DNA of 64,000 bases from Candidatus Falkowbacteria bacterium (GTDB taxonomy: Bacteria > Patescibacteriota > Patescibacteriia > JAACEG01): assembly GCA_018651725.1 (NCBI GenBank), contig JABIDK010000014.1, positions 6,625 through 70,624 of the forward strand, read 5' to 3'. The position numbers and the translations under genes are program-made. The notes beneath the pieces are model-generated. The model saw only the letters and a program-made list of their open reading frames with translations, was not told the origin of the DNA and made no database searches. Positions 2,361 through 6,240 of this stretch are shown here, piece after piece (the first letter of the stretch is position 1; each line of letters opens with the position of its first letter).

Positions 2361-3704
2361 TTAAAACGAGCTGTAAATTTTTTGTTTTATTGTTTCTATA
2401 TTTTGCTTTAAAGATTCGTCTATTTCCAATTGAGCCTCTATTTTATTGCAAGCATGCATTGCTGTTGTGTGATCTCGTCCGCCAAGCTCTTGTCCAATGG
2501 CTGGGTATGAACTTTTCATTTCTTCTCTCATTAAATACATTGTTATTTGACGAGGACCAACTAAGTGTTTTTTTCGACAAGCTCCAATTAAATCATTAAC
2601 GGAAATACTGTAAAAATCAGTAACAATTTTAAATAATGTTTTTACATGAAACGATTTTTTTTGTGGAAGGCTTTTAAGGTTGATTAAAACCTTCCCTACA
2701 CTTTCTAAGTCTGGAGTAATATCTTTTATTTCATGAAAAGCTATTATTTTATTTAATGCCCCCTCTAATTCTCTGACATTACTTTTTATATTACTGGCTA
2801 AAAAATCAATAACTTCATTTTTTATTTTAAAATTTTTCTCTTTTGCTTTATATTTTAAGATAGCACTTCTTGTTTCGAAGTCAGGACTTGAAACATCGGC
2901 TATCATCCCCCATTCAAAACGAGAAATCAACCTATCTTCCAAGGTAGCGATTGATTTTGGTGGTCTATCAGAGGTTAAAATTATTTGTTTATTAGCCTGA
3001 TGTAATTCATTAAAAGTGTGGAAAAAAGCCTCTTGAGTTTGCTCTTTTCCGCTTAAAAACTGGATATCATCAACTAATAGAACGTCTATTTTTCTATATC
3101 TTTCTTTAAAACTCTTAGTGTTGTTAACGGATAAAGCCTGAATAAAGTCGTTAACGAATTTTTCACAAGGAACATAAAGTATTTTTGACGAAGGATTTTT
3201 TTTAAAAATTTCATTACCAACTGCTTGCATCAAATGAGTTTTCCCTAAGCCAACTCCCCCGTAAATAAACAAAGGATTATAAGCTTCACCAGGCTTTTTA
3301 ACAATTGCTCTTGAAGCTGCCTGAGCGAGCTCGTTTCCTTTTCCAATAATATAATTTTGAAAGGTGTATTTAGGGTTAAGGCCGGCACTAAAAAGATTGT
3401 TTTGTTCTAAAGAGACACTTTTTTGTGTTGGCTTGGATTCTTCGGGTTTTTTTGAAGTAGGTATTATTTTATAGTCTATTTTTACGCTTCGGTTGTCGGT
3501 AATATTTTCTACAGCCTTAGCAATTAAATTTTGATATTTATCTTCAAACCATTTTTTAGTAAAAGCATTAGGAACAGCAATAACAACTAAGTTTTTTTCA
3601 TTATAATGTACATAGGTTTGCTTAAACCAAGTAGTAAAATTAGGCTTACTGATAAGAAGCTCCATTTCTCCTAAAATAGCTTGCCAAAGTTGTTGGTTGT
3701 CCAT
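2361..3704 (-). CDS. dnaA: Chromosomal replication initiator DnaA
   Basis: YNPLFIYGGVGLGKTHL, LLVDDIQF, NVRELEGAL, GGRDHTT. Start trimmed to MDNQQLW at 3704. Confidence 0.98.
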   Translation of the reverse strand: MDNQQLWQAILGEMELLISKPNFTTWFKQTYVHYNEKNLVVIAVPNAFTKKWFEDKYQNLIAKAVENITDNRSVKIDYKIIPTSKKPEESKPTQKSVSLEQNNLFSAGLNPKYTFQNYIIGKGNELAQAASRAIVKKPGEAYNPLFIYGGVGLGKTHLMQAVGNEIFKKNPSSKILYVPCEKFVNDFIQALSVNNTKSFKERYRKIDVLLVDDIQFLSGKEQTQEAFFHTFNELHQANKQIILTSDRPPKSIATLEDRLISRFEWGMIADVSSPDFETRSAILKYKAKEKNFKIKNEVIDFLASNIKSNVRELEGALNKIIAFHEIKDITPDLESVGKVLINLKSLPQKKSFHVKTLFKIVTDFYSISVNDLIGACRKKHLVGPRQITMYLMREEMKSSYPAIGQELGGRDHTTAMHACNKIEAQLEIDESLKQNIETIKQKIYSSF

Positions 3705-3759
3705 AGGAAAAAGTTTAAAGGTTGTTTTTATGATAGTATTAAATTTATTATAATGCAAG

Positions 3760-3975: not shown

Positions 3976-6048
3976 ATGCAAAAAGAAACAATTTACCAAC
4001 CAGAAAAAGAAACAGAACATTTATCCTTAACCAAAGAACAAAAACAAGTCGTCGGTGGCATCACCCTTGGAATGGAAGAGGTTGATCAAAGAGCCCACGA
4101 TATGGATGATGACGTGGTTGAAACCTTGGAAAATGGCCATCCGCTCAATAAATTAATAACAGGAGAAAATAACGAAGTTTTGGGATATGTTGCTTGCGAG
4201 GACTTTGTCTCTGGAGAAGCGTATATAAAATACTTTGGCTCAACCGAAAATTTAAAAACCAATCTTTTCAAAGAACTACCGGCTTTTTTTGAATATGCTA
4301 AACAAAAAGGATATAGCAAGCTTAATTTTCACGGTTGGAATAAACGTTTAAACCATGCTTTGGAGCGATTTGGCTTTGAACACCTTCGCACCGATTCTAT
4401 GGACGATATTAGCGCTGACTTTTACGAAAAAGCGTTAACCAAAGAAAAAGACAAAAAAACAATAGCTGAAGAACGGAAAAAAGCCTTTGAGCAAAAATAT
4501 ATCAACAAGATAAAAAAAGAATACGAACGAACCTTAAAAACATTTAGAGAAGAAGATCAACAACAAAAAGAACAGCAAATCTCAGAAGCCTTTGAAACTT
4601 TAAATAAACGCTTAATAAGTAATGAAGATTTTGAAATTAAGGAAAAGCAAGAAGTAATTCTTAAACTGAAACTGGCGCGCTACTTTCAAAGCAACGAAAC
4701 TTGCGACACAAGCACACTTTATGACGCTATAGTGGAAACTTCAAAATTTATTAACACCGACAAAGGCTCTCTTAATCATTTATTTGAAATACACGAACAA
4801 AAAACTTTGGAAAAAATCGCTCAAATACGAAAACAAAGAGCTGAGATGAGCAACGAGGAAGGTTTTAATCCTTACGAAGCATTATTACGAACAGATTCCA
4901 AGGAGTATTATCTGGCACGCTTGCTTAATATGCCTCATTTGGAAGAAGAATCAGAGTATATGCGAAACTGCGTCGGCACCAGTGATTCTTATATTAATCA
5001 AATGAAGCGCGGAGAAATTGAGATTTTATCGCTTCGCCACACTAAAGAAGGAGGACAAGGAGAGCCGGATGCGCCGATTATGACGATTGAATATGACCCA
5101 AAAGAAAAAGTTATTAAGCAAATGAAAACAGCCAATGATGAATATCTGAGAAAAGACGACCCTTACTACCACGAAGTGATTGACGCGCTTAAAAAACTAA
5201 CTCAAACAACAACCGACATAGGAGAAAAAAGAGAAATTAAAGAAATATCAAAAAGCGAACTGGAAAATATTGAAGTTAAAGACTATCATTTCTTAACTGA
5301 GGACGGAGAAGTTGATTTTCATGATTTTGACCCAGATTCAGGAATTTTTGTTTTGAAAACGGGTAAAATGGATATAAACCAAGATATTCCAAAACAAGAT
5401 GCAGCAAAAATTTTAAAAATAGTTGAAGATATTGAAGTTGAACCGCAAGAAATTGCTTGTGGAATAGACGAAATCAACAAAAACACCAAAGCCTATATTG
5501 GCGAGTGGAACCCACAAATCTACCAGGAAATCAGAAAATACCTGAATATTGAGCATCTCTACGAATCTTTTCCAGACAAAAAAATATTTATGCAAACCTT
5601 GGAAACCGATCCAGGCATCAATTCTCCGGAAACAGCCGAAAAAGCGCTAGAAGACGAAAATATATATCTCACGAATCGGGCAAAAGATATTTTAAAACAA
5701 ACAGAGTTCAGCAAAGAAAAACAAAACTATGAACTGGTTAGATTTACAGTTGAACAGCTTGGACTTCCAAATGGAGTGACAATCAAAGAAATTCGTGAAA
5801 AATTAGAAGAGCTTAAACTGGAGCTCTGCCAGGCTGAAGTAGGACCACAGCTTAGATTAAAGTATCCGGGGAAAGAGTGGTTGTTTATTGCCATGGAACC
5901 TATTACCGGCTCCGATGGCGATCCGGGCGTGTTCTATCTGCACGAGGATGTCGGGCGGCTGGAGCTCGATGCCGATGACGCTCGGCCCGGCAGCAGGTGG
6001 GATGCGGGCTGCAGGTTCGTCTTCCGTCCCCGCAAGTTAGATTCTTAG
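3976..6048 (+). CDS. Multidomain protein: GNAT-like N-terminus, PcfJ-like middle, C-terminal putative DGR-variable (CLec-like) domain
   Basis: 690-aa ORF; LEEESEYMRNCVG resembles the PcfJ-like motif; C-terminus LELCQAEVGPQLRL...AMEPI...RW....RFVFRPRK with an abruptly GC-rich, A-poor 3' end. Confidence 0.7.
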   Translation: MQKETIYQPEKETEHLSLTKEQKQVVGGITLGMEEVDQRAHDMDDDVVETLENGHPLNKLITGENNEVLGYVACEDFVSGEAYIKYFGSTENLKTNLFKELPAFFEYAKQKGYSKLNFHGWNKRLNHALERFGFEHLRTDSMDDISADFYEKALTKEKDKKTIAEERKKAFEQKYINKIKKEYERTLKTFREEDQQQKEQQISEAFETLNKRLISNEDFEIKEKQEVILKLKLARYFQSNETCDTSTLYDAIVETSKFINTDKGSLNHLFEIHEQKTLEKIAQIRKQRAEMSNEEGFNPYEALLRTDSKEYYLARLLNMPHLEEESEYMRNCVGTSDSYINQMKRGEIEILSLRHTKEGGQGEPDAPIMTIEYDPKEKVIKQMKTANDEYLRKDDPYYHEVIDALKKLTQTTTDIGEKREIKEISKSELENIEVKDYHFLTEDGEVDFHDFDPDSGIFVLKTGKMDINQDIPKQDAAKILKIVEDIEVEPQEIACGIDEINKNTKAYIGEWNPQIYQEIRKYLNIEHLYESFPDKKIFMQTLETDPGINSPETAEKALEDENIYLTNRAKDILKQTEFSKEKQNYELVRFTVEQLGLPNGVTIKEIREKLEELKLELCQAEVGPQLRLKYPGKEWLFIAMEPITGSDGDPGVFYLHEDVGRLELDADDARPGSRWDAGCRFVFRPRKLDS
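5905..6036 (+). other. Putative DGR variable region (VR)
   Basis: Hand count 90/132 G+C and 17/132 A within an otherwise A-rich gene; many NNC/NNT/NNG codons between invariant-looking A-free codons. Confidence 0.65.
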
Positions 6049-6180
6049 GAACTTTTACTCTTTATAATATTTGATACTTTGAGATTTAGATACTTTGACA
6101 CTTTTTTGCAAGGAAATATTTTCCCTTAACTTTTTAAAATACGATATTATACAAATACCTTAACAGAATTGTTATATTTT

Positions 6181-6240
6181 ATGTCTAATTTTGCTGAAAA
6201 AGTGTTAAGATTAACAAGACGACAAAAGAGTAATGCTTAA
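6181..6240 (+). pseudogene. Possible 5' stub of an MGMT/ATL-like gene
   Basis: MSNFAEKVLRLTRRQKSNA* resembles the MxxFxEKVxxxxxxIP start of small MGMT/ATL proteins; recognised from memory only. Confidence 0.3.

Follow-up and report, generated by a model that had tools for sequence, protein, structure and literature searches.

The window analysed in this work is a stretch of 64,000 nucleotides (G000:C13:6625-70624) from contig C13, one of the 19 contigs of a Candidatus Falkowbacteria assembly of 920,786 bases that is 93.8% complete. Its forward strand carries an ORF of 690 aa (3976-6048), which we read as the remote target gene of a DGR. The predicted protein consists, in order, of a GNAT fold, a helical region, a PcfJ-like part, a linker and a CLec-like part that holds the variable repeat (VR; VR1 hereafter, 5902-6037, forward strand). 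The gene is oriented divergently from dnaA (2361-3758, reverse strand), a neighbour that is not part of the DGR system. Between dnaA and dnaN lies the likely replication origin (2064-2360), with eight DnaA-box-like 9-mers that differ at no more than one position from the consensus.

GC makes up 68.2% and A 12.9% of the last bases of the ORF, 5905-6036, whereas the gene body has 36.0% GC and 40.8% A, in agreement with the switch to about 68% GC and 13% A over the last ~130 nt described in the initial annotation. AAY codons, which that annotation had found to be missing from the tail, number 0 of 45 in the VR and 32 of 642 in the gene body, and codons with A at the third position 0 of 45 and 263 of 642, respectively. 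In the whole assembly (920,786 bases), windows of 132 bases with at least 66% GC occur in only two places, VR1 and the VR of a second gene, target 2. The tail is GC-rich and A-poor as proposed, but its start was placed at 5905 and homology to the template begins at 5902. The window was rightly said to lack an RT and a template repeat (TR), as the PF00078 match and the TR-like stretch both lie outside it. Composition is insufficient by itself, since 15 other homologues without a nearby RT have the same GC-rich, A-poor tail; the genomes of five have no RT, and a matching template was found for only one of the 10 whose genome had one, in incomplete assemblies of which ~1.5 kb around each RT was scanned.

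The distant template and its cassette

A BLASTN search with the tail returned two further copies, both on contig C13. The check proposed at the outset, for a copy differing at adenines and lying near an RT and avd, was positive: the TR (C13:95291-95426, forward strand), recovered by BLASTN and by a scan that treated adenines as wildcards on either strand of the 19 contigs, lies beside both genes. The two pieces of template guessed from the tail agree by eye with the TR at 28 of 30 and 32 of 39 bases. The cassette runs from its own target, target 2 (C13:92985-94961, forward, 658 aa), through the TR, avd (C13:95444-95848, reverse) and the RT gene (C13:95744-96817, forward) to a tRNA-Arg (C13:96937-97009). 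The avd product matches PF22296 with 57.4 bits, over the cut-off of 40, and NF033474 with E 3e-18 and 66 bits, below the cut-off of 80. The RT (357 aa, PF00078 E 2e-24) has the YADD motif and no stops, is encoded ~320 bases from the TR, and its gene context suggests the DGR type; it is the sole PF00078 match in the 93.8% complete genome. Both genes are intact and in frame. A search for Rfam families over the TR region found only the tRNA.

VR1 and the TR are 82,765 bases (82.8 kb) apart on one contig, the TR downstream, such that the gene at 3976-6048 is not adjacent to the cassette of a genome with one RT match only. Of their 136 bases, 22 differ between the two repeats, and 21 of these are TR adenines, which supports the diversification in trans claimed earlier. 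In other words, 21 of 39 adenines are changed and only one of 97 other bases (Fisher p 5e-13), the exception being a C-to-G at 6004. The VR at the end of target 2 (VR2) differs from the TR at 22 bases, all adenines. Positions other than A that equal the TR number 97 of 97 in the TR itself, 96 in VR1 and 97 in VR2, and the next best stretch genome-wide has 43. A third target was found neither by protein search nor by the adenine-wildcard scan, with three matches each. Most TR adenines (37/39) fall at codon positions 1-2, and the VR occupies the 3' end of a coding gene.

Two of the adenine differences probably have another origin than mutagenesis. Position 6005 is C in both VRs, and the corresponding TR base is A in the assembly and C in the contigs of all four sequencing runs; the assembly base is probably an error or a strain variant. 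Position 6033 is likewise C in both VRs, within the GC-rich end, as it is in many related VR ends, and fits an IMH/IMH* difference. Without these two positions, 19 of 37 adenines are changed, plus the one C-to-G. The tail was likely mutated from the remote template, the DGR probably rewriting this gene from 82.8 kb away.

The two targets share a DNA block (5469-6105, forward strand; 80% identity over 643 columns) that starts at the linker, takes in the VR and ends with a periodic tract following the stop. Over residues 493-642 the identity to target 2 is 77%, higher than for any of 119 homologues (63% at most), whereas the N-terminal segments of the two proteins have an identity of only 8-26%. 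From these sequence comparisons, the block likely derives from a C-terminal domain swap, which would be the reason why one template fits both genes. A shared block of about 640 bases at 80% identity could also suggest that ordinary gene conversion from target 2 produced VR1 and that retrohoming played no part at the site. We find this very improbable, and it is largely refuted by the distribution of differences: VR1 and VR2 differ at 22 sites, of which 21 are TR adenines, and conversion followed by drift would not confine differences there. Moreover, VR1 keeps TR adenines that are changed in VR2, and vice versa. As nearly all differences between them are at TR adenines, both VRs were likely rewritten independently. 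Third-position differences between the targets affect one of the 45 VR codons and 15 of 56 codons in the 168 bases upstream, which fits repeated overwriting better than plain duplication. On this sequence evidence, the non-adenine sites of both VRs were brought back to the template after the two genes had diverged.

Whether VR1 is still edited bears on another reading, in which the gene is a former target, diversified beside a cassette or while it had a hairpin, that then moved or lost its signal and is now frozen. The VR variation for which the initial annotation had suggested looking at reads did not appear: VR1 has no variants in the contigs of four runs from three studies, with a depth of ~3-8 and contigs that drop rare variants, and two of these runs may be the source of the assembly. 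VR1 is also without the GC-rich hairpin that follows target 2 (fold energy -4.3 against -12.6), and the orphan copies mentioned above are common. However, the hairpin-bearing target 2 is likewise without variants, none being listed for VR2 in the run contigs over the cassette, and the RT and avd are intact. Moreover, VR1 still agrees with the present TR at 96 of 97 non-A positions, although the shared block next to it has drifted by ~20%, so that the last overwrite was recent relative to the split of the two genes. We regard a frozen target as quite unlikely.

We therefore hold it very probable that the gene is the second, remote target of the single DGR of this genome, and that this DGR probably rewrites the tip at which a soluble GNAT-PcfJ-CLec protein is predicted to bind its ligand; the match of the last 45 codons to a template 82.8 kb away, except at adenines, points to this. 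By the established DGR mechanism, Avd and RT would transcribe the TR RNA inaccurately at A, and the resulting cDNA would take the place of each VR, diversifying up to 23 codons and allowing in principle ~3e20 protein variants.

Candidate signals downstream of the VR and within the cassette

After the last mutated adenine (6011), the repeat ends in a GC-rich segment (6012-6037, forward strand) that is a putative IMH. It differs from the TR once, at 6033, and the difference is common to both VRs; a difference of this type recurs at the ends of related VRs and TRs. The segment is followed by a degenerate tract of TT(T/A)G motifs with a period of 8 bases (6037-6112, forward strand). Degenerate repeats after the stop had been noticed before, and the 100 bases after the stop indeed contain seven TT(T/A)G motifs, a number reached in 0 of 5000 shuffles. 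The repeats characterise the family: 30 homologue flanks (two were dropped, one masked and one short) average 5.7 motifs per 100 bases, compared with 1.5 behind 528 ORFs from this genome and 1.4 behind 14 templates, and 74 of the 152 spacings in the homologue flanks are exactly 8 bases.

Because the motif was picked after seeing the data, we applied a motif-free test, trinucleotide autocorrelation, on 55 TR-VR pairs from 109 other RT loci, mostly of other target types. After the VRs, lag 8 gave 393 against 81 in shuffles (z 27.7) and lag 16 a z of 13.3, in loci that are related and hence not independent; after the TRs there was no peak at lag 8 (103 against 83, z 1.7). A simple motif rule for the tract selects 11 windows genome-wide, two of which are the VR flanks and nine unrelated.

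Since the tract follows VRs and not TRs, and VR1 has no GC-rich hairpin, we consider it a candidate homing signal by which the target is recognised. The block common to the two targets stops at the end of the tract, and the GC hairpin of target 2 lies outside it. The target signal would then be made of the IMH and the periodic tract together, a proposal that follows from the remote copy being without the hairpin. The tract could instead serve transcription or RNA stability. In the set of Wu et al. (2018; PMC5758913) a strong inverted repeat is an optional feature, present in only 127 of 372 DGRs, and recognition must sometimes extend downstream of the IMH; the term 'direct repeat' does not occur in the main text of that paper.

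A different kind of repeat is found in the cassette, where avd and RT overlap head to head across a (GA)11 tract (C13:95810-95831). The patterns searched found no other long dinucleotide or G/C run in the genome. Both frames are open across the tract, and contigs of two runs cover it with no gap. Of 110 RT loci, this one included, 90 have a GA or G tract at the RT/avd overlap. By a crude ATG-only rule, avd is in frame across the tract in 8 of 21 GA loci and 21 of 68 G loci, and the frames of the two genes agree in 17 of 20 GA loci. The in-frame (GA)11 may be taken as a sign that the cassette is set to 'on'. Among the papers listed in a literature search there was no published repeat switch on DGRs, and a supposed link between four-helix-bundle genes and short tandem repeats was dropped, as none of those listed was relevant to it.

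The gene family and the position beside dnaA

Among 7997 candidates scored, 289 proteins match the target at E<=0.001. An RT match is present in 20 of 54 homologue loci of species genomes, and a matching TR in 15 of the 33 loci with an intact C-terminus, which makes the family a recurring DGR target. The gene itself is sporadic among the genomes searched, as a sporadic insertion would be: a search of 400 further genomes from the class (E<=1e-30) did not find its N-terminal 430 residues, and the full-length gene was not found in 60 relatives. A mobile GNAT-PcfJ target gene would have inserted between dnaA and ftsH, and recombination would have made its C-terminal 640 bases common with the resident target, thereby placing it under this template.

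The adjacency to dnaA reported in the initial annotation is real, but it is not a conserved feature. None of the 54 homologue loci, many of which are cut by contig ends, has dnaA, dnaN or ftsH, and none of 18 dnaA loci of relatives has the target gene within ~1.5 kb. In one genome of the same family (G003), one of seven with longer dnaA stretches, dnaA is directly followed by ftsH and the same next three genes, with the target absent; the other six longer stretches have neither ftsH nor the target. We rejected a conserved link between target and dnaA on these grounds.

It may still be asked whether the location was selected, for copy number and editing rate at the origin or for co-regulation with dnaA, a proposal that concerns the location only and is compatible with the gene being a remote target. 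VR1 is ~3.7 kb from the likely origin, the sign of the GC skew changes nearby, at 9-10 kb of C13, and the gene is co-directional with the fork. In E. coli, DGR editing is more frequent in targets that lie close to oriC and run in the direction of the fork, as reported by Unlu et al. (2026; PMC12875486), who ascribe the effect of position to multi-fork replication. A slow-growing symbiont may be without such replication. Two DnaA-box-like sites are found in the intergenic stretch shared by the target gene and dnaA; a promoter scan gave three sites against 2.7 expected. The presumed leading strand carries the homologue in 33 of 38 loci (87%; 16 of the 54 were dropped for too short a flank), against 163 of 249 neighbouring ORFs. 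Ordinary long ORFs in this genome have a similar share (290/374, 78%), however, and, the loci not being independent, the excess amounts to a weak trend. Together with the lack of dnaA in homologue loci and of the target in those of relatives, this makes an adaptive location unlikely in our judgement, and the gene probably came by chance to be inserted at this place, which happens to favour editing.

Domains of the protein and likeness to known DGRs

The initial guess of a GNAT-like, PcfJ-like and CLec-like protein without an obvious signal peptide holds, with differing strength for its parts. Pfam and NCBIfam gave no domain at a useful score on the target, and a profile of 113 sequences gave no match against PDB sequences. 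A structure model built from these 113 sequences has a mean pLDDT of 88.7. The part assigned to the GNAT fold (3976-4446, forward strand; residues 1-157) best matches Ard1 (4pv6; Z 14.9, rmsd 3.5, 145 aligned), with RimI and Naa50 next, and all 50 matches listed are GNAT-fold entries by title; Foldseek gave E 1.2e-5 and the Atlas search a TM of 0.70-0.74. The family has an invariant FHGWN-like motif and G133-F134. In a loop that presumably binds acetyl-CoA, this copy has E91, K94 and T95 where the consensus has G, G and R in 58, 81 and 76% of rows, departures by which its GNAT domain may be altered or inactive.

For the PcfJ-like domain (4783-5175, forward strand; about residues 270-400), with invariant N318, C332, G334, Q382 and K384, PF14284 scored over the cut-off in 34 of 40 homologues scanned, out of 112 aligned, and the Atlas and viral fold searches agree. 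The target protein bears a precomputed PcfJ-like label, yet the Pfam scan of this copy gave no PF14284 match. In the HCV-type motif C332-V333 are conserved, while H331, found in 92% of rows, is N in this copy.

The C-terminal domain (5569-6045, forward strand; residues 532-690) is likely a CLec fold with the VR inside, according to structure comparisons whose scores fall below the threshold of the tool. Residues 431-690 folded alone with a pLDDT of 96.3, and the best match of residues 532-690 has a weak Z of 5.8 (rmsd 3.5, 97 aligned), followed at lower scores by TvpA (2y3c; Z 5.0, rmsd 3.8, 129 aligned) and Mtd (1yu0; Z 4.0). By title, nearly all of the 50 matches listed are C-type lectin, FGE-type, Link or DGR variable proteins, as we take their families to be; AvpA, the archaeal variable protein, is not among these 50, which carries no weight either way. 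Foldseek returned nothing at E<=0.001 for this domain (best E 0.068). No hydrophobic segment was found in the protein, the best 19-residue Kyte-Doolittle mean being 0.64. The PcfJ and GNAT parts are the most conserved and the VR is the least.

These predictions suggest, with something less than even confidence, a soluble cytoplasmic sensor-effector whose variable CLec tip binds a changing partner that the GNAT and PcfJ domains modify. The partner would probably be a phage, mobile-element or host protein; PcfJ is uncharacterised and the nearest Atlas clusters of this part are mostly viral, from which we lean towards a role in conflict. A supposed link of PcfJ to GNAT or polyvalent proteins found no support: the papers retrieved were unrelated, and 'PcfJ' does not occur in the passages of PMC5512222 compared. 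We offer more tentatively a general scheme in which DGRs of the Patescibacteria type mark their targets by the periodic tract instead of, or besides, a hairpin. A new gene would become a remote target, in this genome next to the origin, by recombining in a lectin tip together with the tract, and a cytoplasmic effector of acetyltransferase fold would so gain a hypervariable targeting domain under an on/off switch by repeat slippage.

TvpA, a surface lipoprotein, resembles the predicted tip of the present protein, and differs from it in that the latter has no hydrophobic segment. DGRs with non-adjacent or remote targets, that of Treponema denticola being an example, share with our case one TR, a distant target and, with minor exceptions, A-to-N differences only (PMC5758913, PMC6602519). 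The gene order of the cassette is that of architecture B3 (TR, antisense avd, RT), which makes up 90% of the CPR set in PMC5758913. Targets of category g2, 'PcfJ', in the same set have, like ours, a C-terminal VR with a PcfJ-like motif upstream and ~20 TR-VR differences at ~40 adenines. The two PcfJ rows of that set list one adjacent target of ~1.6 kb, no non-adjacent target and no GNAT motif, whereas here two targets differ in their N-termini and the remote one, at 82.8 kb, has the GNAT fold. Non-adjacent targets number 73 in 45 of 372 DGRs there, and those more than 100 kb away are described only in and near Lineage 4; against these, ours is a case of CPR type at 83 kb. With B3, PcfJ-type targets and non-adjacent targets catalogued in PMC5758913, and Paul et al. 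(2017) cited for remote targets by Roux et al. (2021; PMC8144416), the remote target itself adds a clear new case to a kind already known. No earlier description of the GNAT fold, the domain swap or the VR-only periodic tract was found in the DGR literature compared, Paul et al. (2017) being outside the comparison.

As in the DGR of Bordetella phage BPP-1, mutagenesis is adenine-specific at codon positions 1-2, and an Avd-like accessory gene and an IMH-like GC-rich end are present; a CLec-like fold is likely, with a weak match to that of Mtd. Unlike BPP-1, this DGR is chromosomal and cellular, has two targets, and its avd is antisense and overlaps the start of the RT gene across the GA tract; in place of the GC-rich inverted repeat of BPP-1, the remote target has the 8-base-periodic tract.

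The locus offers a natural experiment, with one template and two targets that differ in hairpin, in position (origin-proximal against 86 kb out) and in N-terminal cargo, and that keep the same putative IMH and 8-base-periodic tract. It makes testable how Patescibacteria DGRs, most of which have no strong hairpin, tell target from template, and what soluble, non-membrane DGR targets do, the GNAT fold offering a direct enzyme assay. Clade 2 (Patescibacteria) targets of Roux et al. (2021; PMC8144416) are, as here, cellular, aquatic, modular and without a transmembrane segment. Most have no recognisable conserved domain and their role is left open in that report, whereas fold prediction gives GNAT, PcfJ-like and CLec-like parts here. 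The sequencing runs that contain the present organism are marine metagenomes.

Surroundings of the template repeat and the avd/RT overlap

In the cassette locus L002, the template repeat (TR) is preceded on its 5' side by a spacer (L002:8963-9290) and directly followed on its 3' side by a hairpin (L002:9427-9460), both of which appear to be conserved across related cassettes; a stem resembling this hairpin also lies 3' of the TR in the related loci compared for the ends of the TR and the variable repeat (VR). No Rfam match was found for the spacer or the hairpin, and together they possibly constitute a structured DGR RNA. The head-to-head overlap of avd and the reverse transcriptase (RT) gene contains a (GA)11 tract (L002:9810-9831, corresponding to G000:C13:95810-95831 in the source genome), across which both genes are in frame. 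Similar GA or G tracts are present at 90 of the 110 RT loci, where avd is frequently out of frame, and the (GA)11 tract is a candidate slipped-strand switch. A XerC/D-type tyrosine recombinase gene (L002:5140-6072), two genes upstream, and a tRNA-Arg (L002:10938-11010), directly downstream, flank the cassette.

Target 2 and homologues of the window protein

The N-terminus of target 2 (658 aa, L002:6986-8962) differs from that of the window protein and had no match in Pfam or NCBIfam. Around residue 309, target 2 has a cysteine motif that lines up with C332 in the window protein, so it may contain a divergent PcfJ-like domain.

Fourteen homologues (L028, L035, L036, L037, L039, L042, L043, L048, L049, L055, L061, L067, L074, and L077) have GC-rich, A-poor tails, yet a matching template was not found near any RT of their own assemblies; in this protein family, targets that are orphaned or remote from their template are a common occurrence. 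At L024 and L027, where the homologues adjoin an RT, the VR region is apparently frameshifted, as the tblastn hits are split, and these could be indel products of mutagenic homing. In another genome, two target-plus-TR copies with identical scores (L007 and L020, G011:C6) lie in tandem, ~3.1 kb apart, 5' of a single RT, reflecting either a duplication or an assembly artefact.

Single-base differences in the TR and the window

The TR base at G000:C13:95394 (L002:9395) is A in the assembly, whereas the contigs of all four metagenome runs compared carry C, as do both VRs at the matching position; the A is probably an assembly error or a strain variant. In the intergenic stretch of the window, a one-base deletion at position 6197, seen in one contig of run X8 (depth 3), represents either a strain variant or an error.
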